This document shows positions 3,930 to 64,000 of a stretch of DNA of 64,000 nucleotides, in pieces. The DNA is from Yuukianura sp. NJ FZ-2021. Taxonomy: Eukaryota. The notes beneath the pieces were generated by a model, which worked only from the letters and a program-made list of their open reading frames with translations, was not told where the DNA came from and did no database searches. The first letter of the stretch is position 1; every line of letters starts with the position of its first letter. The stretch lies in the NCBI GenBank assembly GCA_046563655.1, contig CM102289.1:1240001-1304000 (forward strand). The letters are read 5' to 3'. The position numbers were made by a program, and so were the translations under genes.

Positions 3930-3943
3930 TGTATCTAACAAAT

Positions 3944-10757: not shown

Positions 10758-10917
10758 GTAGTCAATAGGTTATGAAGAATAAATGAAATGTGTTTTACAA
10801 CCGCTTTTATTATCCTCTGCGAACGTTAGGTTAGGCAGTAAGTTTAGGTCAGACAACAGACGTAATTAAATGAGTCTAGTCCTCTCTCAAGCGAAATCTT
10901 TACCCTGTGTATACGCA

Positions 10918-21646: not shown

Positions 21647-21828
21647 TAAGAATTTCTTTTTTCCATTTTTCAAAATGTTAGTTACCCTTACTACTATTCA
21701 ACTTTTAGAAATTTTGAAATTTTTAACAAATATTAGTATCTTAAGCGCTTCTCTACCACAACTAAACTTAAATTTGTACTTTTTAACTCTAGGCGTTGCA
21801 AGTAGGTATTCCATTCCTAAAACATACA

Positions 21829-23985: not shown

Positions 23986-24173
23986 CGACCCAGCCATCTG
24001 ACGAGCAGTAAACCAGAGGAAGACATCCCACTTGGACATCAGTCATCACCTTTTTAAAAGGTCTATGTGAGCACCGAGCCAGCTCCAAAAAACCTACAGG
24101 GCTCTACATCAGGTGATATCGTCCCAAACGTATCATTACATTACCAATCTAATCTCAGTCCCCGTTTTCAGCT

Positions 24174-30772: not shown

Positions 30773-32477
30773 TCGAGGATTGTAGGCTCGAACGACTGCC
30801 ATAAACTCTTCAAACTCTTGATTCGAAATATATCCGTCTCTGTCAAGGTCGTAAGCGGCTGCCCGATTTCGAAAACAGGTTGCTCCGTCGTGAAAATTTT
30901 CAATAGTTTCCATCATTTCACTCATTGGAATGTAGCCTCCGAATCGTTGTTGCCAGTAGCGTACGTACACTAATTCTTCCTCTTGCGACAGTATAATTCC
31001 GATTCGCTTAGCAAGTAACGGAAGGTCGCTAGCTTTGATGTAGCCTTCGTCGGAGAACGTCGGAAGTGCTCGGAAAGTTGATTTAATGCTTTCGAGCTCA
31101 TCTTTTGTGTAGCGTCGCCTGGAATCGCGTGGCATTTTTTCCTCTACAAAAGCGGGCATCGCTAAAATGAAAACAAATCGGTTAATATAAAAAAAAATTA
31201 TGAAATAATACACCAGAAATCCAAATTGGGGAACTTTTTTCATCCTCATTCACGTGACATATAAGGAAGATACAATAAAAGCTAACTTTTTGTGAGGTCT
31301 CGTACTATACGGAAATGACTGATGTGAGAATGGGTGGTGCAATTTCTTCAATGGACTTTAGTCGTAAGGTTTACGGTATTTGGCGGGAAAATCTTTTTAT
31401 ACCAATCAACCAATTAGAGTGAGTTCCCCATTTTGGAGTTCTGGTAATTTAACCAGCAAAGACTATTGGAGCTTACCGAAGTTTATGCGAAGAAGTGAAA
31501 TATTTTTGAAATTTTAAGTTTTTAACTTAAAATTAGTTTCTTTTTCTTGATTTGAAGCCGCTGTGAGTAATGGTTTGAAAAAAAAGTCTCGGAGCCCTTT
31601 TAAACCGAACGGTTATGAGACGCAAGTGTGCGTGAAAACCAGAATGTCCAGAATTTAAAACTACTATGCAAACTGCATTTGCGTCAAAATTTAAATTAAC
31701 AACCAAATTTACAATTTTATTTCCTGCGTGAAATTGATTTTTGAAGTTTTGGTCCAAGGTTTCTAATGTGAACTGCTTTCGTGGATTCAAACTACGTCAA
31801 ACTTTTTGAATCCGGGTATTAGCCTTTGTCCAGCCCGACCTTGCCGTACTTGAAATGGCTTGGCACAACCAGTGACGTTATAAATTTTCTCCTGCAACTA
31901 GTTTTTTCAAACTCGTTTTGTCTATGGGTCATTTTAATTTTTTCACCTCGAATCTTCTTTTCGTTTCGAGTTTTTTCCCATACTTTTTACAATCATATTT
32001 TTCAAAAACTAAAATGCATTTTTAGTTTTATGTTTTAAGTATATGACATGCTGATGGACATAATTTTTTTTAAAATCTCTTCCGTTTTTTGAAGCGTTAG
32101 TGACTACTTTACAAGCAGGCAAAATAGTACAAAAATTTTTTGATCCCTCCTTAAATCCAAAATGACTAAAACTAGTGCTTTTTTGGGTTTTCGCTCATTA
32201 TCGTTTCAACTTCAACGGATTTTATATTTTACAGAAAAGTTTTAACTGAATTTGAAGGTGTAAGACTCATAATCTAAAACCTGTATTCACTTTGAAATAA
32301 ATTTTGAAGAAGAAATTCACAATTTTATTTTATTTCTTTGAAAATTGTCTATTTTAATTTATTTCCGGAGTATTTTAAATTTAAATGGAATCGTTTTTTG
32401 AAAATTTAAAATTTTTGACATCGATGACAATTCAGAATTTGTGACATCGATGTTCATCCTCTAATTTCTTCTCAAAT

Positions 32478-33315: not shown

Positions 33316-34243
33316 TTAAAATGTTAACGTAAGCTTTAGAAAAATTTTGATAAACTGAAACGAGACATGCTTAACTTACTCTGACAAACTGCTTACTTCA
33401 ACTGACGCGTATAAAGAGGTTTGTGAAAAATTAATATTTATTATTCGTTATTTAATAACGAGATGGCCATGGCATTGCCTAAATGTTTAGCTGGTAAACC
33501 AGAAAACCTGAAATTAATTCACTAATACTTGTTTCGCGACTTTTTTAATTTGGAACAAGTTTTTAACTGAAGTCGAAGGTTGAGAATCATAATCTAAAAT
33601 ATGGTTTACCATGAAGTAAATTTCATGAATGAAATTTACACTTGGTCATGAAATTTTTCACCCCAAGGGAGAATTTTAACGAAAATATAAACTTGTTTAA
33701 AAATGATCTACGCCATGCTTTTTTGGTTCAACTTTTTGCTTTCATGTTTTTTTAAGCAGTATTTTGAAACCTTTTGTTTGTCAGGTTATGGGTTGACAAA
33801 TAGTACGCAAAAATTCAAAATTTTCTAAAATTTGCCTAAAGTTAGTACTTATTTCGTGTATTGCAATGTAAACTCTGCACAGTAAATGATAATGAACTGC
33901 ATCAACGCATAGTTAGCTGATTTTTTCTAATAATCACATTTCAAACTTTTGTTTTTGTTTTCGCTCTTGCTTTATTTAACTTCAATGTATTTTAATCAAC
34001 GCCAAAATAGACCTCAAATGTTTAAATCTCGGTTTATTTCGTGTTTAAAACGCTTTTTGAGCGGAATGTTTGCCCATCCATTTGGCAAATTCATCAAGAC
34101 TGATCTTGCCGTCTCTGTCCGTGTCAGCTTCTTCTACAAACTGCTCATACGTAAGGTCACGATAGTGCGGATTGTGAATACCGCAGAGGACCAAGAACTC
34201 CTCAAACTCTGACATGGAAATGTAGCCGTCTCCATCAATGTCG
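33316..34243. repeat. 928-bp direct duplication, left copy (right copy 36735-37662), flanking the LINE
   Basis: Constant offset of 3419. First ~680 bp identical by eye; ~8 substitutions in the last ~250 bp. Confidence 0.93.
34045..34243 (-). pseudogene. EF-hand copy 10: 3' half only, a duplicate of the copy 11 C-lobe
   Basis: DIDGDGYISMSE...KHSAQKAF* is identical in protein to the C-terminus of 37464-37946. The 5' half is replaced by the LINE. Confidence 0.9.
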
Positions 34244-36736
34244 CAATACGCAAATTCCGAAGGTGTAATACTGAAAACAGAGAGGTCTATGCCCAACGCT
34301 ACCTTGAAGCCCAAAAGAGCTACAAACAACAATTAGCAAACAAGAAATCAACGTTTAATTCGAACTTGGTCTCACAACTCCACGCTTCAAAGGACCCAAA
34401 AAATTTCTGGAAGGCGGTCAAATTCCACACAACTCAACACACCGTACAAGACAAAATCTCCAAGGAAACATGGTTCCAACACTTCCAGAACCTTTTCAAT
34501 TCAAACCAGGTTCCAAGGGATGTGCTACCAGAAAGCCGTGTTATAGAAAACGAGATCCTTGACCGCGACATAACAGCTCTGGAAATAAGACTGGCGACCA
34601 AGGAACTAAAAACAAACAAAGCGACAGGTCCTGACATAATCCCGAACGAGGTTTGGAAATCTGCCACTCCTAAGCTTCTATTATTCCTTGTCACTCTCTT
34701 CCAATCCATTTTTACAAGCGGGGTATTGCCAACTCAATGGTGCAACGCGCAAATTCATCCACTTCACAAAAAAGGCTCAAGGGACCTTCCAGAAAACTAC
34801 CGCCCAATATCGTTGATGAACACAATTCTGAAAGTATTCACCAAAATCCTCAACTCAAGACTCACAAACTGGATAAACATCAACCATAAAATTTCGGATT
34901 TCCAGGCTGGTTTTCGGAAATCAAGATCATGTACAGACCATATCTTCACTTTGATGTCCATGATCCAGTGCCAACTCCTAAGAAGGAAGGAACTGTATGT
35001 CGCCTTCGTTGATTTGTCTCAAGCCTTCGACACACCTAACCATAGTCTGTTATGGGCTGTCCTCGGCAACCTGGGTGTCTCCAACAAGTTCCTAAAAGTA
35101 TTCCGGTCACTGTACGACAATGCCACTGCCCAAATTAACACCAGAGAAGGCTTAACAGACCCGGTCAAGATCATGAAAGGAGTCCTGCAAGGAGAATCTG
35201 CTAGTCCCACACTCTTCAATCTGTTTATTGAGGACCTCGTCTCCAAGTTCTCTTCATCGCTACTGAAAGGTTATACCTTAGGTTCCCGAATTGTTCACAT
35301 CCTCCTGTACGCCGACGACCTTGTCATCACTGCTCAATCCAAAGAATTGCTGCAGGAGAAAATCAAACTCGCCTCCAACTTCTTCAAAGCGAGAGGACTC
35401 TGCGTCAACCTGGCCAAGACAAAAGTAATAGCTTTCCGTCGCTCAGGAAGAATTCGAAAAGACGACCACTTTCTCTGGAACGAAACCCCGATAGAGACCG
35501 TTTCGGAGTACAAGTACCTCGGCGTTATGTTCCAGTCAAATGGCTCATTCCGAAAAGCAGCAAGGAACGCCGTAGAGAAAGGAACCTCAGCACAAGGAGC
35601 GACCCTGAGGGTACTGAAGAAACAGAAGTACATTGACCTATGGACTATTAAAATGCTGCTACAATCACTAGTAAAATCAACCACACTGTACAACTGTGAA
35701 ATCTGGGGCCATCTCCACACTGACACCTTGGAAACGGTACAACAAAGTTACTTCAAACGTCTTCTCCACCTACCGTTTGCTACTCCCAGGTACTTTGTTA
35801 GATTGGAAACCGAATCTCTACCACTGCAATACGAAATCGTCAAAAGAACCTGGTACTTATATGCAAAATTCCACACCAACCTGGGTTCTGACCTCACAAG
35901 AAACGCATACTACCAGCTGCGTAAAATCACCTCTCTTCGCCCAGACGTCAAATACAGTTGGTGCACACAACTTAGATCCGCTCTCGCCCAGATTGGTCAA
36001 GAGGAGTCTATGATAGAGGAGCCGAGACCGAGACAAGAGCCCTGAAGCATACTATGGTACAGAAATTTAGGAACTTCTACCAAAAATCAGACGTAAGAAA
36101 AGCTGCACTATCGAAATCCATTCCTCACTACGCTGAAATCCACCAGAAATTCCCAGCGTCAGAGCTATTCTCCAAGCGGTTTCCTACGTATCTTACGATT
36201 CCAATTCTTCAAATCAGGCTCAACTCAAACCAGCTCTATTTCAACCGGAAATGGCTTGACTTTGGCCAGTTTACCGAAAAGAACTGCAGTTTTTGTGGCG
36301 ATCAACTCTCATACTACCATGCACTTTGGACTTGTCCGCAAACTGAACCCCTGAGAATCCAATTAAAACTCCCGCCAGACCAGTGCCCAATACTTTGGAC
36401 CATCTCAAATGCAACGGACGCTGCCTTCATAGGAAAAATTCAAAACTTCAACGCTAAAATACTGGAAATATTCGAACCAATGCTAAGCAGATGAAAGTTG
36501 GAATAAGGTTTTTTAATTTTCCCTTGAAGATATTCTTTCTTTTAATTATAATTGACTTTGCAATTTGTACACACCTTTTCGACCCAACTATGCCTACGCA
36601 CTAATTCTTCTATCTTAATTTTTAACCATTTAACTAAGTTATACTAACTAAGTTCTTCTTAAAACTTAAACGAGCTGCAGGAATGTAATTGATAGGGCAT
36701 CGGCCAAGATCAAATAAACTGATTGATTGATTGATT
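34244..36736 (+). mobile_element. 5'-truncated non-LTR retrotransposon (LINE; RTE-X/L2-like, clade uncertain)
   Basis: RT ORF, C-terminal CCHC motif, 3' UTR with AATAAA and a (GATT)4 tail. No endonuclease domain present. Confidence 0.92.
34366..36494 (+). pseudogene. LINE ORF2 remnant: reverse transcriptase plus frameshifted C-terminal CCHC domain
   Basis: KATGPD, NYRPISL, FQAGFR, FVDLSQAFD, GVLQGESASP, LLYADD, YKYLG. Frame change and stop near 36045, before CSFC-x7-H-x4-C in 36054-36494. Confidence 0.9.
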
Positions 36737-39741: not shown

Positions 39742-40212
39742 TTAGCCAGCGTTTTTCCCAATCCACACCGCAAATTCGTCGAGACTGATTTTGCCATCCT
39801 TGTTCGTATCCGCCTCTTCGACAAATTTTGCATACGAAATGTCGCGATAGTGCGGATTGTGAATCCGGTACAGTACCATGAATTGCTCAAACTCTTGCAA
39901 AGAAATGAACCCGTCTCCATCAATGTCGTAGACTTGCGCACGATTCCTAGCCTGCTGTGCGTCGTCATGAAAACATCTCACAGTGTCAATCATTTCTCGC
40001 ATAGGCACGTACCCACCAAAATGTTGGCGCCAATAATTGTAGCAGTGAGCATTCTGCTCTGGCGTGCGTGGATAGCCGATTCGCTCACAGAGAAGCTCAA
40101 CGTCACGAGCCAATATGAAGCCTTCGTCGGAAAAACTCGGAAGTCCTCGGAAAATAGATTTCACACCTTCGAGTTCCTGCTCGGTAAATGGTTTTGTGAA
40201 GTCACGCGACAT
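39742..40212 (-). CDS. Calmodulin-like EF-hand protein, copy 12 (156 aa)
   Basis: ATG at 40212. EF loops DIDGDGFISLQE and DTNKDGKISLDE. Confidence 0.9.
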   Translation of the reverse strand: MSRDFTKPFTEQELEGVKSIFRGLPSFSDEGFILARDVELLCERIGYPRTPEQNAHCYNYWRQHFGGYVPMREMIDTVRCFHDDAQQARNRAQVYDIDGDGFISLQEFEQFMVLYRIHNPHYRDISYAKFVEEADTNKDGKISLDEFAVWIGKNAG

Positions 40213-40277
40213 TGTATCTAACGAATGAAATACTCCGTATGCACACCTAGAAAAAGAGTACAAAAAGTTCAATTGTA

Positions 40278-40439
40278 CACCTAATGTTCGAAATAAGAGA
40301 CAAGATTACTACGCCCTTTTGAGCGGAAGTTTAGGTTTAGGACACTCTTTAACTCTGGCTGATCCTCCCACTTTAAAAAACGGCAAACTTCCACTCAAAG
40401 GTGTGGAAAGATCTTGCTTCTTATAACGAACATTAGTTA
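40278..40439. mobile_element. Tc1/mariner-type MITE in the 5' UTR intron of copy 12
   Basis: ~55-bp imperfect inverted arms (CTAATGTTCG...GAGCGGAAGTTT / AAACTTCCACTC...CGAACATTAG) flanked by TA. Confidence 0.65.
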
Positions 40440-49458: not shown

Positions 49459-49929
49459 TTAGGCCGAATTCTTTTCTATCCATTCTGCAAATTCGTCGAG
49501 ACTGATCTTGCCGTCCTTGTTTGAATCTGCCTCTTCTACAAACTTGGCATACGAAATGTCACGATAGTGTGGATTGTGAATTCGGTACATCGCCATGAAC
49601 TCCTCAAACTCTGCCATGGAAATGCACCCGTCTCCATCAATGTCGTAGATTTGTGCACGAACCTTGGCCAGTTTCCCGTCGTCGTTCCAATATCTCAGAG
49701 TTTCAATCATTATCCGCATGGGGACAAACCCACCAAAACGTAGTCGCCAATAACGTTCGTACATGGCAACCTGCTCTGGCGTGCGTGGAAGGCCGATTCG
49801 CTCAAAGAACAGTCCAAGGTCACTCGTCAGTATGAAACCTTCGTCGGAAAATGTCGGAAGTCCTCGCAAAATTGATTTCACACCTTCGAGTTCCTGCTCG
49901 GTAAATGGTTTGGTGAAGTCACGTGACAT
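49459..49929 (-). CDS. Calmodulin-like EF-hand protein, copy 13 (156 aa)
   Basis: ATG at 49929. EF loops DIDGDGCISMAE and DSNKDGKISLDE. Confidence 0.9.
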   Translation of the reverse strand: MSRDFTKPFTEQELEGVKSILRGLPTFSDEGFILTSDLGLFFERIGLPRTPEQVAMYERYWRLRFGGFVPMRIMIETLRYWNDDGKLAKVRAQIYDIDGDGCISMAEFEEFMAMYRIHNPHYRDISYAKFVEEADSNKDGKISLDEFAEWIEKNSA

Positions 49930-50952
49930 TGTATCGTGACAATGAAATACTCCGTATACACACCTAGAGTAAATAATAGCAGAATAAAGACACAATTTTA
50001 ACCAAGGTTGCTTGACAGTCATTTACTGTTCTGTAACAGGTTGCATAGTACCTCAGTTGCTTACCAAAAAATGAAAATAAAAAACGGAGTACCAAAAGTA
50101 CCCATTCCAAAAAACGAGTTTCTGGCAATAATTCGTAATGTAAAATTTTTAAAAATTTGTTTATAATGTGATGGTTACATATCCACAAAATGCAAATTAA
50201 CCTTGTGAAATGTAAAAAACACGAGTTATTACGCAACCTGATGAGTTAAGGACTGTTAATACAACAATAATTTTGAGAAATAAGTAACAAAACGTGCTTA
50301 CCTTACTCCGTCAACTGTAGAGTTCAACTGATGCGTTTGAGGTAATTTGTTGAGAATTTATTGATGAGATAACCTTGTCTAAACTTATACCTCAAAAGCA
50401 GAAACACCTTAAATTGGTCAATTATTTTGAGCCTCAAAATTTTAAAAACTATTAATCTTGTGACGTTAAGTCGATGCCAGCGCTAAGACGCTCTTCAGTG
50501 GCACCGCATGAACTCTGCAGCGAAATAACGCAGACGTTTTTCAGAAAAGCAGATCTTTCAGCGGAATTCGAAAAAAACAAACGAAAAAAGAATTGGGAGG
50601 CGTTGTACTCAAACAAAATTTTAAATTAAGTTTAAGGGTGATCAGTATTATTATTATTATTATATATTACTCAAACTCAGTTTTTACCATGTAATAATTT
50701 TGAAGAATTTTTTTCATTTGTACAGTTGACCTTGAACATTTTTATACCAGAGGGGAGAATTTTTTGATGATTTGGTTTAAATTCTTTTAAACAGGATGCA
50801 TCAACCTTTTATTAGTCTTTTTCTTAAATGAAACGTGTTTTGAAAATTTTTGAAAATTTGAAAGTTTGACCACTATCCGCCGTTTGTAAACTCATCGTTT
50901 CTGCTTATGAAAACCAAATTCCAGAAACGTCTCAACTGCTAAGTCCTTGAAT

Positions 50953-51459
50953 TCATTTTTTCGTTGTTTTTTCAAGTTCAGTTGGATTTGGAACCGAATT
51001 TTTATGAATCCACTCTTCAAACTCGTCGAGACTGACTTTTCCGTCGTCATTTTTGTCCGCTTCTTTCAGAAATTGTTCAGATGAAATTTGACGAAATCGA
51101 GGATCGTATGCTCGAACGAGTGCCATAAACTCTTCGAACTCTTGCCCCGAAATGTATCCGTCCCCGTCAAGGTCGTATACTGCTGCCCGATTTCGACTAC
51201 ACTTTGCTCCGTCATGATAATTTCGAATAGTGTCTACCATTTCACACATTGGAATGTAGCCTCCGAATCGTTGCCGCCAGTACCGTTCGTATACTACTTC
51301 TTCCTCGGTTGATAGTTTAAGTCCAATTAGATTACAGAATAACGCAGCGTCACTAACCTTGATGTAACCCTTGTCGGAAAACGTCGGGAGTCTTCGAAAA
51401 ATTGACTTAAAATTTTCCATCTCCTGCTCTGTATAAGGTCGGCTCGAATCATGCGGCAT
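50953..51459 (-). CDS. Calmodulin-like EF-hand protein, copy 14 (divergent subfamily, 168 aa)
   Basis: ATG at 51459. EF loops DLDGDGYISGQE and DKNDDGKVSLDE; C-terminal extension. Confidence 0.9.
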   Translation of the reverse strand: MPHDSSRPYTEQEMENFKSIFRRLPTFSDKGYIKVSDAALFCNLIGLKLSTEEEVVYERYWRQRFGGYIPMCEMVDTIRNYHDGAKCSRNRAAVYDLDGDGYISGQEFEEFMALVRAYDPRFRQISSEQFLKEADKNDDGKVSLDEFEEWIHKNSVPNPTELEKTTKK

Positions 51460-54177
51460 TTTGAACAGAAAAAGCTGAAGTAACAAAAATAAGTTAAGTA
51501 AAAAGTTGTAAAATCATAGTTTAATAACTAGCACTTAAAGGAACTTACAAAAGATTATAGTAAAACAGTAAAATATTTGGAATCTGGTTGAAATTGGCAG
51601 TTTAGTATGTACGTCTTGATTTGAGGTTTGAACCTACTTTAACTAGCAGTTTTAAACAAGTGTTGAAGGGTTTTGTTTTAACAAGACGGTAATAACTATG
51701 TTTAAACATTAGAATGCTAAATTTGAAATTAATCAATTTAAAATTACCACACAAACCACACTGGGTAAAATTTTAATTAACCAGAAACCTACTAATTTTT
51801 ATCATCCGTGAAGAATATCTTTGTATTTTTGTTCCATCGCTTCGAATGGAATTCGTGGAATTAATTTCACACACTTAAATTAAGTGCGCGTCCTTGAAAT
51901 TTTCGTGTTTTGGCGATGTTTGTAAGGTTGAAAGTTGATTTTGAGGTTACTGTTGTAAAAAATTAAACTAAACTTTGAGGCTTTTTGAATTTAAGGTTTG
52001 TTTTTATTTAGTCATAAAAGTTAGAATTTAAGGCAAATTTTGGACTGCCCTTTGTATACCCTGTGGATTTTTTTTGTCACGTCTAGTACTCTATATTTTC
52101 CAGACAACAATTTGATTTGAGCAATCCTGGAGATGCGTAGTACTTTCTCTCAGAAAAAGAACTCAGAATGAGTTGTGTGGGATAAACTAATTAATGTTGT
52201 GTGACCTTTGCCCCAAGGGTGCTTCAGATCCAAAAGAAAACAGAATTGGATTTGAAGAGACTGGAAAGGTGAAAGGCTGGAATTAGAAAGCTACAAATTT
52301 GATTTCCTGCTGCCCAGATTGCCATTTCTTCTCCAAACATTTTCTCAGCCTTAGCCACTTTCCTCAAATTGGAAATCAAACACAGTTTTTCTTTTTCTCA
52401 GAGTGTGTTGGATTCAGCGGGAAATCAATTTCCTTTTGGGATTTTCATTTCCTCATACCTGTTTCTCAAAATAATACTTCAAAACTAAAAGAAGTACCAA
52501 AAGTTCTGAAAACTTTTTCAAAACAGCTACAAAAAACAAAAAAAATTAAATTTTAAAGTCGTACGCTTGTTTTATTAATTTGAAAACAGAAGATAAGGGT
52601 TAAGTGTCGACGTCTTTCTTTACTTGTCGCTGCCTCATAAAATTTAACACGAAAAAAATTTAAATAGAAAGCGAAAAAGCTTCGTTTTCTACACTCTGCT
52701 TTTCTTCTCGGAAATGCAATTCTTTTTATTCTAAGAGCGGAGGCAATCCCAAGGAAATTGAAGCTTAGTGAAAGTGGAGATTCGCATCTTTACTGCTTTC
52801 CCTTGCAAAAAAAAGTACAATGGGCTCATAACCAGAGTTTACATCCTCCCACGAGAATATGCTGCCGTCCAGCACATTTGTACTGGCAAGCACATTCGTA
52901 CTGTCCAGCACATCTGAAGCCCGTTCCAGAAATACTTCTGGACTGGCATCTTTGTGACACAAAAACAACAGTAATTTAATAGCTGTCCAGGCGCATCCAA
53001 ATCGCTACTAACAAATCGCCCATTTTAGCCGCAATTTTTCATTTCGCGTCCCGCATTTGTTTTAAAAGAGAACAAGAAATTGGACAGACGTAAAGAAACA
53101 CAAAACCGAAAGAGAAATCCCTAAACACGGGTTAGTTTTTAGTTGTTTGAAAAGGAGTGGCAGAAAACAAATACAATTTCGCGCCAAAATTTATTTGTGT
53201 GTTCACATTAGCCAGTGACCATAAGCAGTTTAGAATGATATGGAAAATTAGTTTTGAAAATGCAACGAACTGTTTCTGGTTGTAAAAAGCTTTCCAACCT
53301 CAAAACTTCATTTGGTTTTCCAAATTCCAAACCTTATGTTATAAAAGTTGTAAAAAGAAAAGTTCATTTGCGTTTTTCTTTTGAAATGGGCATAAGTACT
53401 ACTATAAAGATTTTGTGAATTTGCGAAGTTGCTACGAAATTTATACAACCCAATTTGAAAAAGTGCAGATAAAATTAACTACAATCAGAAGATATAAGCT
53501 ATTCACATGTTAACGCTAGTCATAAATGTGAAATTACTAAACATATAATTAGTATAAAACTAAACTCCTTCATAACATCCAGTTTTTACAACAACAGTTT
53601 GGAAATTTTGTTTCTTTACTTTAGTTGTTTATGTGTAATTTATGTGATGAAGGAAACACTTACAGAATGAAATAAGATAAAAAACTTAAAAAGCAAGACT
53701 TTGAATATCTAATTGCAGAAAGTTAAGAAAATTAAGCATGTATTAGGTCAGAGGGAAAGGAAAGTTTAAAAAGTGAAAACGGAATTACATTTTCGAAAGT
53801 TACAGCATCAGAAACTTTGCCTCGCTTTTGTTCTTTCCTGTTGATTCATTTTTGTTACTACGTAGTTAAATTTTGTTCAAAGTAGCAATCAACAAAACTA
53901 AATTAAAAGAAAATTCAAAAGAAAATTATGGCTTTAGAAATATTAGGATTTTTGAACAACATTTTGTATGATGCAATTTTTGATTAAAAATAGAATTAAG
54001 TAAACTTTGACAAAGGAACGCTTTTCATAAAACAAATTTGTTTGAAAAAGTAGTCGTTGTAACTTCAAAGCTCGAAATTTGTTTCTCTGGCTTTCAAATC
54101 GTGGAATACTAAAGTGTTTCAGTTTGTCTTTGTCTGCTCCTCTTGTTCCAGTTTTGTTCGATCTGTCGGATTAGGCT

Positions 54178-54610
54178 GCTCCAACTCGCGCTTTTGGCGC
54201 GAAGTCATGGCATCCCAGATCTTCTTAGGATTGTAAGTTCCTATTTGGCTAAATATTTAATAAGCCGTTTTCTTATTAATTTCTAAGCACTTTCTCCTCC
54301 TCCAAGCAGCACAAGATCTAGTTACTCCTTCCTTTCTTTGAATTCCAACTCCTCTGGCTCTATAGAAACAAAATAAATCTGCACTTCCGTTCCACTTTGT
54401 ACTATACAGACCGCCTCCAGCCTATTGCACAACTTTTTGAACTTGGCGGCATCCATCTTCAAACGTTTCCCTGAAACTCAAAAAGACTTTGGCTTCCAGT
54501 TACATTTCCGCCAAAATGAAAGTCAAACAAAAGTTCAATCAAAAGTCATTTCGAAAAAGAACAAAATTGTTTTTTTAGTTAACTTTTTTGAAACTCTTTT
54601 TACAAAATCA
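54178..54610 (+). pseudogene. Decayed duplicate of a chloride-channel exon plus intron (42532-42985)
   Basis: Shared blocks GGCTAAATATTT, TTTTCTTATTAATTTCT, AGAAACAAAATAAATCTGC, ACCGCCTCCAGCCT, TTGCACAACTTTT, CAAAAGTCATTTC. The exon portion is mutated or deleted. Confidence 0.8.
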
Positions 54611-54943
54611 AGGACATAAAATTTATTTGAAAGTTCTAAGAACAACTTCATCATAAAATAAACTCACATTAAAGTTTCCATTAAGCAGAAATTGGCTCAA
54701 AGTGGTTTACTAGGCTTAAGTGATTTTTTGCGTAAATTTGGAAAATTGGACTAAATTTAAACTTTTGTAATTTCCCACGACTTTTATATAAAGTTCCAGC
54801 GATCTAGCTTTTACAGTGGTGCAAAGTTCCTTGAATCCCTTCTGACTCCAGTAGCTTATCTTCTGAAACAAAAATTAAGTTAACACTAAACTTAAAAAAC
54901 TAATAAAGTTTGCTTAAAAAACTCATTTTTGAAAAGTTTTACC

Positions 54944-56310
54944 ATGGGAGCAGACGAACCAATTCGACTTCCTCTTCTTCAGAACTCTCCAATCAAATTC
55001 GGCAGTCCGATCAAGTTGCGCTACACTTTCGACGATGTTAACCATCCAATCTATGGCAAAGCTACGGATTTGGTTGGCGAATTACAATTCTTACTGCCTA
55101 AGGGGTAAAAACTTAGTGTTTTATTAAAATTCTTGAAATTTTAATCATGCTTTTACCACATTTTAATAATGGAGAAAGAGAAAACCAGAAACAGCAAAGT
55201 ACAAGGTTTTTCTCTTTTTTTTTTTTCAAAAAAAAAGGTTGTAGGAGTTACACAAAATTGTTCAGCTTTTTAATTAGTTTATGAAACTAATTTGATTTTT
55301 TTTTCGTGCACAGATCATACCCGATTCCAAAATTTCTGGAGTTGAGTAGACGTGAGCAGGACACACTTTTACGAAATGGCATCAACCGCCTCCGGCACAT
55401 GCACCAGCACCTCAGTGAAGAAGAACTGCAAACAAAGCTGCTCGGAACGATGCTATTTTCAACATTTCTGCATCCCCGTATACACGCTGGGACACAATTT
55501 TTTGACATCGCTTACGACATTTTTGTCACAATGTTTAGAGGTGACGACTACTTGGACGATGAAGGTGGATTTCCATTGGAAATGGACACTAAATTTATTT
55601 TCAAAAAGCGTGACCTGTGGGAACGAGCTTTCAAGGGAGAATATGAAGCAGTGCATGGGGTGAGTCAAGCTTTTCCGCCAATGGAGCCTGGAATGACCTG
55701 CATGTACAAGTCACTCAAAGCCATCGAAGAACATCTTCCAAAAGTGCGGGAAAATTTAGAAGCGTTTTTCCAATCTACGATGCTAGCGGCACAGGGGGTG
55801 ACACTAAAGCAACTGTCTGGTGATGATCCGTTTTCCGAAGAAGGCCGAAAGATCATTCGGGCATATGAAGGCGGCATGGTCATCATTACTGAAATTGGGG
55901 CCGTTTTGAGAGATATTCACGTGCCGAGCTACGTCCGACAAAGTTTGTTGTTCCGCATGCTCATTGACGGCGTCTGGTACTTTTCGGCGCTAATCAACGA
56001 CGTTCTGGGACTCAACAAAGATGTTAAGAACTCCGACACGGCGTCTAATGTCATTTTGAGAAACGTTGTCGACAGAAAAATTACACTGAAACAGGCATTT
56101 GATGATGAAGTTCGGCGTTTACAAAACATAACGAAGGATATTGGAGTTGCGGCAAGAAAGTTGGTGGCAGCATTTCCGGACAAAGGAGTGGCCGACTTTA
56201 CGCAACATTGTTTGGAGTATTGTGATGGACAGACGTACTGCTACATGATACTGGCACATCTCAAAATTCGGTATGGAGCTGTCGGTACACAAATACTGCC
56301 GGATTGTTAA
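54944..56310 (+). CDS. Class I terpene synthase, microbial-type (385 aa, 2 exons)
   Basis: Exons 54944-55104 and 55314-56310 join in phase 2. DDYLD (DDxxD), sensor Arg (IIRAYEGG), NSE motif NDVLGLNKD, C-terminal RY (KIRYG). Confidence 0.88.
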
Positions 56311-56549
56311 TGTAACAGAACATTGCGATGTTAGTTTTCTGCCTAGTTGTCTAATTGCCAATTTTTTTTTGATTCGGAAAAAGGAAGTTCAATTGACCCG
56401 GTTCATAATATTTCAAATAAATTTGCTTTTGTTTTTTCCAAAATTTTGTTTGGTCGTTATGTTGTGCATTTCAACATTTTGCTAGAAGTTTTCCAGAAGC
56501 AATAATGTTTGAAAATAACGGTCACAGTTTAGTGCTGGACATCTCACGT

Positions 56550-59081
56550 CTAGGTGGATGTAAACGGCGAAACGTTACCATTTCTAAATTTCCAACGTTG
56601 TAACACGGTTACATATAGGCGACGGTAGGCATGTCGCACTTGATTTAAGCGTCCGCGAACTACTAATTTTAAACTGAAGTGACGAAGCTTGAGACTTTTA
56701 GGGTGCATGGCTTTGAAACAACGTGAAATGGCAATTTCTAAGTTAGAGAATACACTTGTCGTTCTAATCATACAACCATAAATTATTGCTCTCACCTCAT
56801 AAAGTAATACTAAACTACACAAGCCCAAGCAACACAATATCATATAAAAACATGTGACAATGTTTGCTGTCAAATTTAATTTCTTGGGTTTTTGCTTCAG
56901 TGATTTCGCTTTTCTGTGTTTGTTCAAAATGTTGTCCATTTCAGTAGGTCTAGTGATGGGGAACCATTTTTCCCACAAGTGGTAAATTCCAGATTCCGTG
57001 AGTTGTTGCAACCGTTTGTATTGATGCTGTTCATATATTGCGTGTCCAAGAACTAAAGAGCCCAATGGTTTCGTTCCTTTGCGAAAGTGTACTGCATTGC
57101 TGCCACTAGTAGAGTCTTCAGTTTGCACTCTACTTTCATAATGTGCTAAAAATAAATTTAAAAATGGGTCAGAGGCCAGCATGGCTATTTGTGTACACAG
57201 TGAGAGAATTTCTGAAAGTCTGGGAAGTACAGCTTTAAGGTTCAGCAAAGAGTCCTCGTTGTGAAATAATATTCTAGTGAGTAGACATGTTGAAGGAAAT
57301 CTACGTTCAATGAAAGCATCCAAAACTTTTCTTGTACTTCTTTTTTCGTTTCTTCTAGTTAGGCTAAAATAGTAATAATTCAAGCAAGGATGAATTAAAT
57401 TCGGTTCAAAGGTTTGATTGTTTGATAGATGCAAACATTGGAAAATGCTCGACCTTGTGAAATCTACTATTCGCCTGAGAGCAGCGTTGCCTGTAATAAA
57501 TCCATGTCTGTTTCTATCAAAGCCCTCGCCGTGATCAAAAGTTTCTTTGCATTCACATTCAAACATCCTAAGATCTTGAGCGTATTCCCCGTCAGATGAA
57601 TTATGAATAGTATAATCATCAAAATAATCAATGAACATAATGTACTCTTCCGCTCTTGCATCGGCGAATAGCACAAAGCCCTCCAACTGATTGACGTCGT
57701 GGTATGTTTGTGTAATGGGTTTTGGCATAGTTAAATGTGAAACAACTACTCCTTTGTAAGCATTAGAGAGGATTACAGTTAACAACATCCACAGGCTGAT
57801 CACAGTCATTATGCGGTTTCGGGCAATATTTTGTTGTGCTAGAGAAAAGATTTCTACCAAACTCCCTGAGAATACAAACAAAAAGTCTAAACCAACTAAA
57901 TATTGCAGGCGTAAAGTCACAGAAGGTGACTGGACTCGAGGTACCAAAGTACCCAGAGATATTAACAAAACTCCTGTCGCTAATATTGCACCCCAAGAGT
58001 ATGCATCGTAAGGCAGCGTGTATGTTTCAAACGCAAGATTGTCACTGACTCCATCACAAGTTAAGAAATTTATGCTCTCCTGTTTGACTAGAAAAAAATG
58101 CGACACAGGATGGTATTTATAGGGGGTAACTAAATCTAAACCATGAGAAAACACCCTCGATTCCATTTCAGCTCGAAATGCGGTTTTGTTTAACGAAACG
58201 GGAATTCCCTGCTCATAGTGCAAAAGTAAGTCAATGTAGTTGGAAAACTCAAAAGTTTCAGGTACAAGTTCATTTGCCTCGTACGGATTCAGAACTTTAT
58301 CGACAGGAATCCTACCCTCAGTTACGTTGTGTGTTGAGAAATAAAGAAAATTTCTTGCATTAGCTTCCGCTGATTTGGTCACCTCTCGAAACTGGTTGTA
58401 GAACAGCGCTTGAGTTGTATTCATCGCGTACCAGCAATAAGACCCCCATTTAAAATGTCCATCATTACTTCCATTCTGAGTCTTGAAGTGCAAACGTATG
58501 TTTGAAATTTGGTATCCCCAATGGCCATGTTCTGTGAATTGAGGATTTGATGTTAGATTAAGGTAGAATAAGAACGCGTATGGGAGCTCTTTCACTAGTT
58601 CGGTCACCAGTAGGTAAGAGTAATTTCGTTGAACAATATGAATTGAAACACCCAGTTTTCTCTTAAAGTCGACGGAATCAAATAACTTCCAGTTGGGTGT
58701 GTCATGATGCCTCAACCGCTCATAAAAACTATCGGAAAGTAGCAGGAACACTTCGAAGTAGTTCAATTTGTTACTAGAAATGTCAATGTCTTGTATCACA
58801 CGAAGCACCGCAACATCAGTGTTGTGTGAGCCGTTTCTTTGCCAAATGTAGTGCAACTTTATGGGGACGGCAAAACCTTTAGTAATTTCAAACTCAGGAT
58901 TTTCAGCAATTATCAAATTGTCACTGTGTGGAAACTGAAACTGATCTATGAGTTGATGCAGATTCACAATGTTGTACGTAGGATTTGATACCATCGAATT
59001 CCCTGACACTCCTAGTATGAATATGTTCAAAGGTAACATTAGCCAAAAGAAGAACATTGTTTTAAACGAAGTTTTGCGCAT
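56550..59081 (-). CDS. Divergent ionotropic receptor (iGluR/IR-like chemoreceptor), intronless, 843 aa
   Basis: Signal peptide; NFLTC; pre-M1 FETYTLPYDAYSW; M1; pore-like FSGSLVE; M3 LWMLLTVILSNAYKGVVVSHLT; S2 LQQLTESGIYHLWEKW; M4 IVTCFYMILCCLGLCSLVLLYE. Confidence 0.78.
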   Translation of the reverse strand: MRKTSFKTMFFFWLMLPLNIFILGVSGNSMVSNPTYNIVNLHQLIDQFQFPHSDNLIIAENPEFEITKGFAVPIKLHYIWQRNGSHNTDVAVLRVIQDIDISSNKLNYFEVFLLLSDSFYERLRHHDTPNWKLFDSVDFKRKLGVSIHIVQRNYSYLLVTELVKELPYAFLFYLNLTSNPQFTEHGHWGYQISNIRLHFKTQNGSNDGHFKWGSYCWYAMNTTQALFYNQFREVTKSAEANARNFLYFSTHNVTEGRIPVDKVLNPYEANELVPETFEFSNYIDLLLHYEQGIPVSLNKTAFRAEMESRVFSHGLDLVTPYKYHPVSHFFLVKQESINFLTCDGVSDNLAFETYTLPYDAYSWGAILATGVLLISLGTLVPRVQSPSVTLRLQYLVGLDFLFVFSGSLVEIFSLAQQNIARNRIMTVISLWMLLTVILSNAYKGVVVSHLTMPKPITQTYHDVNQLEGFVLFADARAEEYIMFIDYFDDYTIHNSSDGEYAQDLRMFECECKETFDHGEGFDRNRHGFITGNAALRRIVDFTRSSIFQCLHLSNNQTFEPNLIHPCLNYYYFSLTRRNEKRSTRKVLDAFIERRFPSTCLLTRILFHNEDSLLNLKAVLPRLSEILSLCTQIAMLASDPFLNLFLAHYESRVQTEDSTSGSNAVHFRKGTKPLGSLVLGHAIYEQHQYKRLQQLTESGIYHLWEKWFPITRPTEMDNILNKHRKAKSLKQKPKKLNLTANIVTCFYMILCCLGLCSLVLLYEVRAIIYGCMIRTTSVFSNLEIAISRCFKAMHPKSLKLRHFSLKLVVRGRLNQVRHAYRRLYVTVLQRWKFRNGNVSPFTST

Positions 59082-59418
59082 TGTCTTTTGTGTTTATTGT
59101 AAATTTGGAAATGCCTTTTGGATAGCGATGATTTATTGCAGCTAGTACAGGACGTTCAAATTTGGAGACAAAAAGAAATTCGGTAGAAGAGAAGTCGACG
59201 AGCCTTTACTAAAAATTAATTTGTATAATGTATCTGTGCTGAAACATTTTTAAGCACTCCGGTTGGCGTGTATAGAAAATAAGGGCGGAATTTACATATC
59301 AAAACATTTATTCGACAAGAAATTTCGAGTTTATTTAAAATTTAGTTTGCTATGCCCAACACGGGAGGTTTATTGCGAAAATTTTACTCTACACGATATG
59401 TCGACTCTGTTATATGTA

Positions 59419-59641
59419 CAGTGACCGCCAGCTAAAAGAGTACAATAAAAATCACTATTTTGTGGAATTTACGACACTGTGGAGGAAAAACGAGTGAAAT
59501 AACGCGATTTTCAAAAATTCCATCATAAGAGTTAACTAAAGTTTCAAATTTTGAGTTAGCTCTCCCCTCATGTTTACATAAGTTTTAACCTGTTTCTATG
59601 GAAACAAGATGGGGGTGTACTCTTTTAGCTGGCGGTCACTG
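59419..59641. mobile_element. Tc1/mariner-type MITE (223 bp)
   Basis: Perfect 26-bp TIR CAGTGACCGCCAGCTAAAAGAGTACA, with TA at 59417-59418 and 59642-59643. Confidence 0.92.
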
Positions 59642-60649
59642 TATAATTTGAATGTCACGGAATGTCGGCTATATAAATTGTAATTTTAATTATTAGTTCG
59701 AACAAAAAAGTATTTAGCATGAGTATTTAGCACGAAATGCTCTACAAAACCACTCAAGAAGGAAAAATTAATTTGGCTTATGCTTGTAGTGGCAAAAAAA
59801 AAATTACCACTGCGCCACAAGTCATACTCTGCTCAAAGGGCGGAGCATTTGTTTATAAAAGTTTCTTCTACACGAAATGCCAACTGTTATCAATTTCTAA
59901 TTTTAATTTTAAAATTAGCTTTCCAAATTTTTGTATTTTTTGAAGTTCGAGTGCCGAAGGTCACATAAAAGATGATATGGTTTCAATGTTTCAAAGACAC
60001 AAAAAAAGTCATGGGAAAGTAATTTGTGTGTCTATTTTGTTGTGAAGTAAACTCACTCTCCGGATTATGTTAACTATTAGTCTTTTGTTCTCTGCAAATC
60101 CTAGTTTTTGCACATGTAATCCAGTTAGAACTAGTTCTCTAAGTTAAAAATAGATTTTTAACCGTTAGTCTTTTGTTTTGTGCACAATGTAGTTTACATT
60201 AGATCTGCATGCAATTTGTATGGCGCGTGTCCGATGCCTATAAAAAGGCTCGGCCGTGACCTCTGATCATTCACTTCTAATCCAATTCTTAAACTTACCA
60301 GAACTCTGTCCGTTCTGCGAACGGACCAGAGGTCAACAACCTAACTTTCTGAAAATAAAAGTTACTCTTCTCTGCAATTTGCGAGTCTCCTAGCAGTAAA
60401 CAATCATTTTCAGAACAATTTTTACTTGCCATGCCCATCCATGTGATGCGTTTTTGGTTTTGTCGTGCCTAGCTTATTTTTAGTTTTCAAAAACAATTTT
60501 TTTTAATTTAAAAACTACTTAGAAGCTCAAAATGTTCTAGCATTTAATGAGTGAATTCATCACTCATTGCAAAGCTAAAAAGTAACTCTAGGATAGAAAA
60601 AATTTGAATTTTGTTCTTTTTTTTTTCAAAATTAAAACAACACTGCAAA

Positions 60650-60862
60650 ATGAGGTCCGTCAAATTGGTGGTTTTGATTAGGTTAATTTTTCTATTGAAA
60701 TACTCTCCAAAAAAAATTTGTCGGTTGAGATTGTGTGTGTGAAAAGCCACATCATCAGCATCACATATTCACCACTTCTTGAAGAATTGAGCAAGAGGTC
60801 ACTAGGTCACACTGGTCAGCCCACTCAAAAACATGACCAAGGCGGGAATTCGGAAATTATGC
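60650..60862 (+). pseudogene. Decayed 5' fragment of a UGT paralog
   Basis: Aligns with 61355-61565 (AAAAGCCAC, ACCACTTCTTGAAGAA, CAAGAGGTCAC, GTCAGCCCACTCAAAAACATGACCAAG) with frameshifting indels. Confidence 0.8.
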
Positions 60863-61354
60863 AAAATGACGGAGCGAGTAACTTTCTCAGCATTGTCGGA
60901 TCAAAGGCAGCTCAAAAACGCTGTATAATTTTACGAACCTGTGCAATTCATGAGCGGCAAATTCTTCGGACTTTCTTTTTCAACTTTTGACATTCTTGTC
61001 CGTTGTATTTCAAAACAGCGTCATGCTTCTTCAAGTGTTCTAAACATCAATTTTGCTATTTTTTTGAAAGTTAGCTGGCAAAGGTCACATAGAACTAAAT
61101 GAGGTTTTAATTTTTCAAAAAAAAAAGTTATTGCTAAGTAATTTTTGTGTCTATTTTTACTTGTTGTGTCCTTCCGCGTAATTGGTTTTTGGTTTTGTTG
61201 TGCCTGTGCCTAAATTATTTTTAGTTTTTAGTTTATAAAAGTTGGAAATACTCCTGTGTTCATTAGTGCGAAGTTGAAAGGAAACTCACCTTTGAGATAT
61301 TAAATAGTTGTGTTGCCTTTTGTGTAAAAAAAAAAGTCAAACAAAATTGAAAAA

Positions 61355-62425
61355 ATGAAGTTAGTGAACGTTGTATTGTTTTTGATTTGCCTAATTTTTC
61401 CATTGAAATGCTCATCAAAGAAAATTTTGTCAGTTGAATTTGTTTCTGACAAAAGCCACGAACTCACCTATTTACCACTTCTTGAAGAACTTGCATCAAG
61501 AGGTCACGAGGTTACACTTGTCAGCCCACTCAAAAACATGACCAAGTCGGAAATTCGTGAACTGATAACAATCGACTTCAACAACATTCGAGTCCAGTCG
61601 GTATTTTCAGTGAAAGAAAAAAACGAAATTCCGAATCCAATTGTCTATTATCGCAACATTATCCCACCAGCATGTCGTGACCTCTATGACCGCGCTGAAA
61701 TTCAAAATCTGGTGAAAGAAGAATTTGACCTCGTCATTCTCCAACCGGTTTTTAACGAATGTGCTCTTGGATTTGTTCATATCATAATGCAGAAAAACAA
61801 CGCCCCACTGATTTTGTTTTGTCCAAGGTCACCGAATAGCTTTCTCGTTGGATTTCTAGGTGGACACTATCCACCTTCATTTGTTCCAGGAATTTTTGGT
61901 GGTTTTGGCGTTGGACCGACATTTCTAAAAAGAGTTCAAAACTTTGTGATTGAAGTTTTTGTGTATTTGCTGTACAATTTTTACTTTTTACCGGTCATGG
62001 AAGCCGTTTATCGTGAAAAACTTGGTGCCGATCTTCCGAGCGCGCGAGAAATTCTCGGTTCGGCTTCAATCATGCTGTCGAATGGACATTTTAGCACGAG
62101 CACACCGAAACCGAACTTGCCGGACGTCATTGACGTAGGAGGACTTCATACTATTCCACCGAAGGCACTTCCCAAGGTAAGACTTAAAAAAATCAAAATT
62201 TGAAAACTTTTTGGATTTCGAAAATTGATTTAGAAATTTTGACAGAATCTGGAAGATTTCATTGCCCAGGGGAGAGACGGCTTCATCTATGTCAGTTTCG
62301 GAACGACAATTTCTACAGTCGACATGTCTCCGGAGAAACTCGAAATTTTTCTTTCGGTTTTTTCAAAATTGAAACAACAAATCATTTGGAATCATGAAAT
62401 TGGTAAAACTGAGACATTTGATTAA
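61355..62425 (+). pseudogene. UDP-glycosyltransferase, apparently 3'-truncated
   Basis: Signal peptide, SH catalytic His, ELASRGHEVT, VGGLH. Intron 62177-62245. Exon 2 reads NLEDFI..GFIYVSFGT..KQQIIW, then stops at 62423-62425. No WxPQ signature or TM segment in the window. Confidence 0.8.
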
Positions 62426-62469
62426 ACCAAACATCTAAGTTTTTGATTTGCTTTAATCAGTTTATCCAT

Positions 62470-63619
62470 TTATTGAACTAATTTGACAAAGCCTAAACTA
62501 CGGTGTTGTCGTGACTGTGAATATCCGTGACTAATTCCAAATAAGTATGCATCTGTAAGATCCATATATTTCACCAAATCTGGATGGTGGTCGAATTCCT
62601 TCAAAACGCTTTGACGCAAAAGCACGTAGTCTGCATGGTCATTTATAATTGCAGACAATACACTTTGAGCAGCCACGTCCACCGGAATCTCTTTTTGAAC
62701 AACTTTGAAAATAATTAGGTTCTCAGAGTGTGCATTTCCAAAATCCTTTCTCAATCCAAGCAAGTCATTAATACTTCCAGCGAGGGAGTTCAAAATTTCC
62801 AACAGTAGTTTAAACGACGGTGCTCGTAAAATGTTAGCTGGAAGTAAATTTCCCACAAAAATCCAAACAGTTTCCACCATAAGATCGGCAAATGAAGCTC
62901 GTTTTCTGTAATAGCTGAACACTTCTTCAGAGTACTGGCGGTCAATAGGTCTGATTGCAGCCCACCGCGCTGTTTCCAGTACCTGGCGCAAGTATTTGCA
63001 AAATGGTGGTTTCTTTTTTTTCCCAGTCTGGGATCAGTTCTCTGTTACGCCGGTTCAGATCTACCAAAGCGCAAAATAAAGAACGAAAGTCGGAAAAGTT
63101 TTCAACTTCGGTATAAACTGTTGCATTATTTTCCAAAACGTCCATCAACTGCAACATTCCTGCGCAGAGCGTTTTGACAGGAACTCTGTTTGCTACCACT
63201 GGTTCCAGGGTTTCTTCCATTGTCCACTCCCACAAGTACCAGTAGTTGAGTAGTTTCATTTCTGGACTGTCGAGGGGTAAAAATGGGTTGAGGTACGCAG
63301 ACGCAAGCGAGCTTGTTTCAATCAATAGCTTAAAATATGTAGATTTACCAGTTGAGTCAAAAAAATTGTTGAACCAATTCTGCAAGTCGACGACCATTGG
63401 GTCCAGTTCCTGTTGAGTCAGCTTTGGACGTTTATATTTTGCATTAAGCGTGAAGTACTCACCCTTGACATGGCGTGGCCCATGTTTTGGATCCACCAAT
63501 TCACCAAAGTCAAAAACGACTTTTGGAAGAGCAACTGACTTCTCGGAAAGTGACTCCGCTAACGTAAACAAAAAAGTAACGGTGAGCAATATACCGGTTA
63601 TTAAATTTATCGAGAAAGG
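62470..63619 (-). pseudogene. Second microbial-type terpene synthase-like gene with a +1 frameshift in an A8 run; start not resolved
   Basis: WTMEETLE at the DDxxD position, YYRKRAS, NSE motif INDLLGLRKD, NLI. Removing one base of the T-run 63014-63021 joins ORFs 62942-63589 and 62470-62991. Confidence 0.75.
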
Positions 63620-64000
63620 CTAATAATTAAAGCATTAATTTAAAAAAAATACCATTAAAAACAATCTTAGATTTTCATTCAATGCTAAACTCTAATATCA
63701 CTAAACGTATCGGTGATCCCTGAAATTTTTTGGAAGCACTCAGGCATTTATGGAAATTTTTTCCAACTGACTACATATGTGCGGAGAAGGGTGAGGTCGT
63801 TTGTTTAAATTCGTTGTTTTTACGAACTTTTTTTTGAGCTATTACATTTTTCTTCTAAAATCGAAACATGAAAACCAAGTTTACACTTGTTGAAGAATTT
63901 TGGTTTTCAAGTTTGTGTTCAGTTTAGTAGATAACGTTTCAAAGTAAATAAACCCAAAGTTGTGGAAACATTCCCAGAAAAATGAAAATAACACCGATTG

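Follow-up and report, generated by a model that had tools for sequence, protein, structure and literature searches.

The 64,000-nucleotide stretch analyzed here, which we call the window, belongs to contig CM102289.1 of the Yuukianura sp. NJ FZ-2021 genome assembly (GCA_046563655.1, positions 1,240,001 to 1,304,000 of the forward strand). Toward its end, three gene families together span 8.7 kb: terpene synthases (TPS), a gene resembling ionotropic receptors (IR), and UDP-glycosyltransferases (UGT). Five pieces of these families are present. TPS1 and the IR-like open reading frame (ORF) are intact, and the other three, namely TPS2, UGT and a duplicate of UGT, are damaged or partial. In our view this part of an arthropod-like genome is probably rich in transposons and evolves fast, and its three lineage-expanded families are probably neighbors that do not constitute a pathway.

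According to this reading, the adjacency would be a co-location of birth-and-death gene families and not a co-adapted unit of synthesis, modification and perception. TPS1 would have been domesticated in an animal genome, where it gained an intron. TPS2 would be a pseudogene from a second, anciently diverged TPS clade, and UGT would be a truncated copy accompanied by a further decayed duplicate of its 5' part. A preliminary description of the same DNA had interpreted these genes as a cluster for making, modifying and sensing a terpenoid. All four gene families that it named were found in the places it gave. Its remark that two members look damaged was correct and slightly understated: UGT is incomplete in the window, and TPS2 has degenerate motifs in addition to its frameshift.

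TPS1 consists of two exons (the coordinates of all features are collected in Table 1). The gene requires exon 1, because exon 2 has no Met ahead of the conserved domain. Exon 1 is 52% identical over 48 aa (E 3e-15) to positions 448-591 of L001, a metagenome locus that encodes a 46%-identical relative of TPS1. In phmmer searches it also matches the N-termini of the database proteins P0032 (E 1.7e-6) and P0025, each of which carries the segment within a single protein. Judging by these matches, exon 1 is a genuine coding exon. L001 has an upstream exon starting from an ATG at 442, followed by a GT..AG intron of about 60 bases (region 442-660), and the position and phase of this intron are the same as in TPS1. 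This contig, which shares the TPS1 intron, is eukaryotic, and P0001, its protein in the database, is a truncated prediction; other close database proteins like it also derive from eukaryotic metagenome contigs with this intron and are likewise truncated. The “metagenomic” relatives of the TPS1 family are probably genes of soil arthropods.

Assembled read contigs from four sequencing runs (X1 to X4) were compared with the region. Runs X1 and X3 may stem from the sample of the assembly itself, while X4 comes from another, related organism and a separate study. One X3 contig links 55103 to 55313 with GT..AG ends. We counted it weakly, as its shorter side has 23 letters, less than the bar of 31 letters, and the kind of run X3 is only guessed (“DNA?”). 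A diverged paralogue of TPS1, about 92% alike over 55825-56311, is present in all four runs; it carries three extra bases at 56177-56178, where TPS1 is one residue short compared with its relatives.

The sequence supports the assignment of TPS1 as a host-integrated animal nuclear gene and not a contaminant, because its intron is conserved in L001, animal-type genes and transposons surround it, and the GC content is uniform (0.33-0.39 at 52-64 kb, matching most of the window). The preliminary description had come to the same conclusion from the intron.

The AlphaFold (AF2) model of TPS1, obtained with an alignment of 40 sequences, has a predicted local distance difference test score (pLDDT) of 93.4 and a predicted template modeling score (pTM) of 0.91. 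A Foldseek comparison of the model with the PDB gave 194 matches at E<=1e-3. Its top ranks are occupied exclusively by class I terpene synthases of bacteria or fungi, among them 2-methylisoborneol synthase, T-muurolol synthase, Copu9, BcBOT2 and epi-isozizaene synthase. The top structural matches have TM-scores normalized by the query (TMq) of 0.58-0.73 and sequence identity of 10-18%. The Pfam family PF19086 (Terpene_syn_C_2) matches TPS1 with E 3.7e-4 and 20.8-20.9 bits, below the gathering cut-off of 23.7 bits; it matches 35 of the 40 aligned members of the TPS1 family at E<=0.001, the best of them with E 2.8e-26. Since the top of the fold search consists of class I terpene cyclases only and 35 of 40 family members match PF19086, we assign the TPS genes to the microbial type and not to the type derived from isoprenyl diphosphate synthases (IDS), in agreement with the preliminary description.

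The Asp-rich motif of TPS1 is DDYLD at residues 77-81 (here and below in exon-2 numbering), with D77 invariant and D78 nearly so among the 40 sequences. The second metal-binding motif (NSE motif), which the preliminary description had noticed in both synthases, is present in variant forms: NDVLGLNKD at 228-236 in TPS1 and NDLLGLRKD in TPS2, each with a final D replacing E. N228 is an invariant or nearly invariant column of the family. Among the 114 relatives described below, NDxxGxxxD accounts for 33 and NDxxSxxxE for 38 of the 86 instances found by regular expressions, a few of which are spurious. Since 33 of 86 instances share the form seen in TPS1, it is a family trait and not a lesion. Arg182 precedes the second motif by 46 residues, and RY stands at 319-320, with both R319 and Y320 nearly invariant. 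By the rule for bacterial synthases, we take this Arg to be the diphosphate sensor and the RY to be the C-terminal pair.

The model and the motifs support TPS1 as an intact, working-looking canonical class I terpene synthase (microbial-type alpha domain) that is not IDS-derived. Going by fold and motifs, the Asp-rich and NDxxGxxxD motifs would bind three Mg2+ ions and a prenyl diphosphate. The substrate would most likely be farnesyl diphosphate, with geranyl or geranylgeranyl diphosphate possible. The enzyme would ionize its substrate and then release one or more terpene hydrocarbons or alcohols.

A word-indexed search found three relatives of TPS1 with 39-46% identity. A profile search of 1.84 billion representatives yielded 114 proteins at E<=0.001 (49 at E<=1e-10 and 10 at E<=1e-30). 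These counts indicate that the protein family is rare. A profile search of the PDB with the TPS1 family reached a best E of only 0.12. That alignment is with T-muurolol synthase, and it is not significant alone; in it both metal-binding motifs, the Asp-rich one and the second one, are matched, NDVLGLNKD of TPS1 being aligned to NDVLSYPKE. When the genomes of 185,579 prokaryote species were scanned with a sequence pattern, a procedure able to detect close relatives only, none of the 90 candidate stretches proved to be a relative.

TPS2 lies in two frames. Its C-terminal half matches PF19086 with E 2.2e-5 and 24.7 bits, above the cut-off, and aligns with the TPS1 family in hhalign with E 2.3e-6. 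The phmmer matches of this half include P0109 (1.9e-43) and P0092 (6.8e-40). The N-terminal half matches P0092 (5.1e-23), P0054 (1.1e-14), P0077 and P0064. The two halves form one gene split by a frameshift, because both match P0092, P0054, P0077 and P0064. With the TPS1 clade, hhalign gave no real match for the N-terminal half (probability 2.2); relatives from the second clade are present among the 114 proteins. The placement of this half by MAFFT in alignment A2 was judged to be wrong and was disregarded. The first exon of TPS2 was not seen in the window. The match of one X3 contig (record 23) ends at 63560, and the record itself is 132 letters longer.

The frameshift in the A8 run is spanned by an X1 contig (record 6, 62362-63122) and an X3 contig (record 22, 62472-63149), both with 0 mismatches and 0 gaps. 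The frameshift is thus in the reads and is not merely a slip of the assembly. TPS2 lacks a DDxxD/E motif: EETLE stands where all six aligned clade relatives have DDxx[ED]. It also has FGIS where D stands first in all seven relatives (mostly DGHN), and the R of R(Y/H), present in seven of seven relatives, is replaced by Q. The second metal motif is kept. We read TPS2 as a putative pseudogene, possibly still transcribed.

TPS1 and TPS2 are 26% identical over 92 aa. We built a quick maximum likelihood tree from 70 of the 114 relatives (those of 280-450 aa, as unnamed rows) and both genes of the window, with SH-aLRT as the only support measure. TPS1 falls into a clade of 20 rows and TPS2 into a clade of nine, each with support 95, and the midpoint root lies between them. 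Because of the low identity and the separate supported clades, the two genes are not a recent tandem pair. An X4 contig of 1029 letters is 86-89% alike to TPS2 at 62972-63574 and has a depth of 207, compared with 3-5 elsewhere in the region; it may represent a relative that exists in many copies or is strongly expressed.

Exon 1 of UGT matches the Pfam family PF00201 (UDPGT) with E 4.7e-16 at profile positions 74-263, and the longer open frame at 10-263. The exons abut on the profile: exon 1 ends at 263, and exon 2 begins at 264-265 and reaches 313-316 of 499. In total UGT covers positions 10-316 of 499, which include the N-terminal acceptor-binding domain. It shares with insect-type UGTs (PF00201) a signal-peptide-like N-terminus and the acceptor-side domain. 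Unlike them, it has an in-frame stop, and the sugar-donor (UDP-sugar-binding) half and the membrane anchor are absent within the window. None of the 15 plus-strand ORFs between 62545 and 63890 matches UDPGT at E<=1. The stop codon of TPS2, on the opposite strand, starts 48 bases beyond the in-frame stop of UGT. In the partial duplicate, column identity with UGT is about 80%, the reading frame is disrupted by indels in the coding part (1, 2, 3 and 6 bases), and the resemblance stops near 60870. The duplication is also visible as direct repeats D1, D3, D7 and D9 with a spacing of 703-741 nt.

The IR-like frame is open for 847 codons, which has a chance of about 5e-25 given the base composition. 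Hydropathy indicates a signal peptide at residues 9-27 and membrane segments at 365-383, 395-413, 424-442 and 741-772. This order, in which a long loop separates the last segment from the first three, is the layout of ionotropic glutamate receptors (iGluR) and IRs; divergent IRs of arthropods share it together with a large extracellular part. At about 300 aa, the loop exceeds the length usual for iGluRs. The sequence SNAYKG after the third segment sits at the position of the iGluR motif SYTANLAAF. The sole Pfam family matched by the ORF, whole or in pieces, is Lig_chan (PF00060), with E 0.013-0.044. Here the ORF differs from divergent IRs of arthropods, as its score is 14-15.8 bits against a cut-off of 30.8. 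In phmmer searches, residues 300-843 likewise had no relative at E<=0.001, and residues 330-800 had none at E<=10. A sequence search of the PDB returned only two chance chromodomain matches with E>1, and a single-sequence AF2 model (mean pLDDT 36) was unusable.

Look-alikes found with a protein language model (Atlas), all of which we treat as leads only, are nearly all from Arthropoda. Arthropod “hypothetical” clusters score 0.96-0.97, and named IR/iGluR clusters, also from Arthropoda, score 0.89-0.92 with 171-189 shared features. The best label for the ORF, held with moderate confidence, is an intact, very divergent single-exon IR-like channel subunit. X3 contigs give no cover over 56719-59254, which we took as uninformative. 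The intronless divergent IR of the preliminary description was therefore upheld as to the single exon and the iGluR/IR topology, but the Lig_chan match is below threshold and no relatives were found. As to its UGT with a decayed duplicate, both genes are present and the duplicate is broken in frame, but UGT itself is incomplete.

Table 1. Features of the window, with positions counted from its first letter
Feature	Positions	Strand	Description
TPS1	54944-56310	+	two exons, one intron; predicted intact class I terpene synthase
TPS1 exon 1	54944-55104	+	161 bases from ATG at 54944; 53 codons and 2 bases
TPS1 intron	55105-55313	+	209 nt, GT..AG (AG at 55312-55313), phase 2 within a Gly codon
TPS1 exon 2	55314-56310	+	entire alpha domain; stop codon 56308-56310
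IR/iGluR-like ORF	59081-56553	-	intronless; 843 aa from ATG at 59081; stop codon 56550-56552
MITE-like element (miniature inverted-repeat transposable element)	59417-59643	.	227 bases, between the IR-like ORF and UGT; terminal inverted repeats of 28 nt, perfect
Decayed partial duplicate of UGT	about 60415-60870	+	copy of the 5' flank of UGT plus roughly its 215 initial coding bases; ATG at 60650
UGT	61355-62424	+	two exons, truncated
UGT exon 1	61355-62176	+	274 codons; signal-peptide-like start and acceptor-side domain
UGT intron	62177-62245	+	69 nt, GT..AG, phase 0
UGT exon 2 fragment	62246-62424	+	its end is either an in-frame stop (62422-62424) or a possible donor that follows 62408
TPS2	63558-62470	-	two frames; second TPS clade; frameshifted
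TPS2 N-terminal half, frame A	63558-63020	-	begins at predicted acceptor AG 63560-63559; no ATG
TPS2 C-terminal half, frame B	63021-62470	-	holds NDLLGLRKD; stop codon 62470-62472
A8 run in TPS2	63014-63021	-	one-base frame shift; junction placed by alignment A3
Helitron Rep/helicase ORF	6327-10769	-	intact; 1480 aa; Helitron_like_N E 1.3e-65, PIF1 helicase E 5.9e-57
BEL/Pao retrotransposon ORF	24153-29741	+	1862 aa, uninterrupted; Peptidase_A17, RVT_1, integrase zinc domain, DUF5641
Reverse transcriptase ORF, non-LTR (long terminal repeat) type	34213-36045	+	610 aa; RVT_1 E 2e-36
EF-hand ORF	20436-21005	-	one of six, about 170-190 aa
EF-hand ORF	21793-22305	+	one of six, about 170-190 aa
EF-hand ORF	30743-31249	-	one of six, about 170-190 aa
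EF-hand ORF	39742-40305	-	one of six, about 170-190 aa
EF-hand ORF	49459-50022	-	one of six, about 170-190 aa
EF-hand ORF	50953-51513	-	one of six, about 170-190 aa

Conservation of the linkage was judged on one informative locus, L002, as L001 is too short for this purpose (2207 bases). L002 encodes a TPS that is 40% identical to TPS1, and its two flanks measure 594 bases and 10 kb. We scanned 11 of its 20 ORFs of at least 90 aa, namely the TPS and 10 flanking ORFs. The neighboring genes encode an EamA-type transporter and proteins of the BTB and C2H2 zinc-finger kinds, and none of the 10 flanking ORFs matches UDPGT or Lig_chan. Thus the number of informative loci where a TPS is linked with a UGT or an IR is zero of one.

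Several observations weigh against our interpretation of the region as a chance meeting of expanding families. The synteny comparison rests on a single distant locus that provides only 594 bases of one flank. The IR-like ORF is fully intact. UGT might continue past base 64000 with TPS2 nested in its intron, since a usable donor is available after 62408. If run X3 is RNA, the exact contigs mean that TPS2 is still transcribed. Finally, if genes were placed uniformly at random, members of the TPS, IR and UGT families would seldom fall within the same 9 kb. Two considerations temper this argument: lineage-expanded families tend to share fast-evolving regions, and the window was picked among very many windows and combinations of families.

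Among the other explanations, it is possible but unlikely that the two diverged TPS clades entered the genome, or have persisted there for a long time, as a single segment into which the IR and UGT copies were inserted later. TPS1 and TPS2 do belong to different supported clades, and their stop codons are 6.2 kb apart. The MITE-like element and the duplicated fragments between TPS1 and TPS2 point to later insertions there. Chen et al. 2024 (PMC11665903) describe two clades, S1 and S2, each with homologues in the same mite species, and infer the transfer of both copies. However, the supplement of the same paper assigns BcTPS2, BcTPS3 and BcTPS5 of Bradysia coprophila to chromosome II and BcTPS4 to chromosome III; linkage of the clades is therefore not a necessity.

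It is very doubtful that TPS1 and the adjacent IR-like gene are a co-inherited pair of signal and receptor, with UGT and TPS2 as unrelated debris. The only two intact genes of the group are convergent, with about 240 bases from the end of TPS1 at 56310 to the stop codon of the IR-like gene at 56550, and X4 contains pieces 97-98% alike both to TPS1 (records 24 and 25) and to the IR-like ORF (records 27 and 29). Yet the X4 contigs are too short to show adjacency, nothing indicates a ligand, and the IR label itself is based on a sub-threshold Pfam match and on language-model look-alikes. A chance neighbor is also plausible, as divergent IRs are reportedly numerous and many of them are said to be single-exon. 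A related idea, that TPS1 and the IR-like gene form a pheromone “supergene” around a horizontally acquired enzyme, in which a receptor tuned to the terpene signal stays tightly linked to its source and UGT and TPS2 are leftovers of turnover, seems highly improbable to us.

We give equally little credence to the cluster of the preliminary description, in which TPS1 (with TPS2) makes a terpenoid, UGT glycosylates it, the IR senses it, and selection keeps the genes linked. The presence of three families within 8.7 kb, with TPS1 and the IR-like ORF intact, speaks for it. Such a cluster would also be new: a full-text literature search, judged by its listing, found no description of TPS-UGT or TPS-IR linkage in arthropods. 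Against it, the truncated UGT has no UDP-sugar-binding half within the window, TPS2 carries a frameshift and departs from its clade at the conserved DD, D and R, and L002 shows no such linkage. In addition, biosynthetic clusters are not known to include a receptor gene. A biosynthetic cluster would contain at least two intact adjacent pathway genes, and TPS1 is the sole intact enzyme gene here. The functional cluster is thus not supported by gene integrity or by the scant synteny.

The explanation with the least probability, close to none, is bacterial or fungal contamination or a mis-assembly of unrelated pieces: the TPS family is of microbial type and its nearest database relatives come from metagenomes, but TPS1 and UGT contain introns, that of TPS1 is conserved in L001, the GC content is even, the prokaryote scan, sensitive to close relatives only, gave none, and exact read contigs cover TPS2 (X1 record 6, X3 records 22 and 23), a stretch of the IR-like ORF (X1 record 5) and the end of the window (X1 record 7).

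The interpretation of the region as a meeting place of several expanded families can be compared with what is known about terpene synthases of animals. Canonical TPS genes were reported for trombidid mites in 2018 (Dong et al. 2018, PMC6275457), for Sciaridae (BcTPS1-5), Collembola and Acariformes in 2024 (Chen et al. 2024, PMC11665903), and for springtails in 2026, with 277 genes across 21 genomes (Wang et al. 2026, PMC13638087). The second of these papers (PMC11665903) deals with introns, clades S1 and S2, tandem copies, enzyme activities, and an expression peak in adult males of Bradysia coprophila, and it does not mention IR or UGT neighbors. The window resembles the published cases in having a single alpha-domain class I TPS with introns in an animal nuclear genome, and two deeply diverged clades per genome with lineage-specific families. 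In both cases the enzymes have little sequence identity to those of bacteria and fungi: 10-18% here in structural alignments, and up to 30% as reported for mites. TPS1 differs in that its closest searchable relatives are only 39-46% identical and its second metal motif is NDxxGxxxD and not NDxxSxxxE. TPS1 is a further gene of the canonical kind already published for arthropods.

The full-length all-helical fold of TPS1 is that of bacterial and fungal class I sesquiterpene and monoterpene synthases with solved structures, such as 4la6 (2-methylisoborneol synthase), 9hqd (T-muurolol synthase), 7ofl (Copu9), 8h6q (BcBOT2) and epi-isozizaene synthase, with TMq up to 0.73. In contrast to them, TPS1 has an extra N-terminal extension of about 53 aa, which is encoded by an exon of its own and is common to some of its relatives.

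Octocorals reportedly have terpenoid biosynthetic gene clusters. As in those clusters, a microbial-type TPS stands in an animal genome beside genes that could act on terpenoids. The window differs from them in that the tailoring gene is truncated, the second TPS is a probable pseudogene, and no conserved linkage is seen. The neighbor here is a receptor-like gene, and such genes are not known to be part of the octocoral terpenoid clusters.

The rest of the window is rich in mobile elements. The MITE-like element has a depth of 2158-4176 in X1 contigs, compared with about 50-57 for exactly matching single-copy pieces, and because of this excess it belongs to a high-copy family. Of the 588 X1 contigs matched to the region, 149 are less than 90% alike to it; this points to numerous paralogues and repeats and is consistent with multi-copy families. 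Contigs of X1 and X2 link 56438 to 63636 with 17 letters between (depth 85.2 in X1 and 49.3 in X2), and 61130 back to 54927 with 27 letters between (depth 49.7 and 38.7, respectively). The flanks of both joints are AT-rich and of low complexity. The joints may stem from a haplotype or paralogous locus that lacks the block comprising the IR-like ORF, UGT and TPS2, or they may be artefacts caused by repeats.

The Helitron is possibly an active copy. The BEL/Pao ORF has a GC content of 0.49 against a background of 0.33-0.40, and the 2-kb bin of the reverse transcriptase ORF has a GC skew of -0.18. The EF-hand genes, six dispersed single-ORF copies with transposons in between, make up a local family. 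No Rfam family matched over 53000-64000, and none of 48 further ORFs at 51.6-61.5 kb has a Pfam match above the cut-off.

Canonical terpene synthases of animals are a recent discovery, and the locus adds a well-supported intron-bearing member that is 39-46% identical to anything searchable. A cluster for making, modifying and sensing a terpenoid, if it were real, would be the first to unite genes of signal synthesis and perception. The two ideas that remain are testable: a pair of emitter and receiver formed by TPS1 and the IR-like gene, and the inheritance of two TPS clades as a block. The presence of two deeply diverged TPS clades about 6 kb apart is a lead on whether such clades move or persist as one block. 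Block inheritance, if true, would bear on the proposal that both TPS clades of sciarids came from mites.

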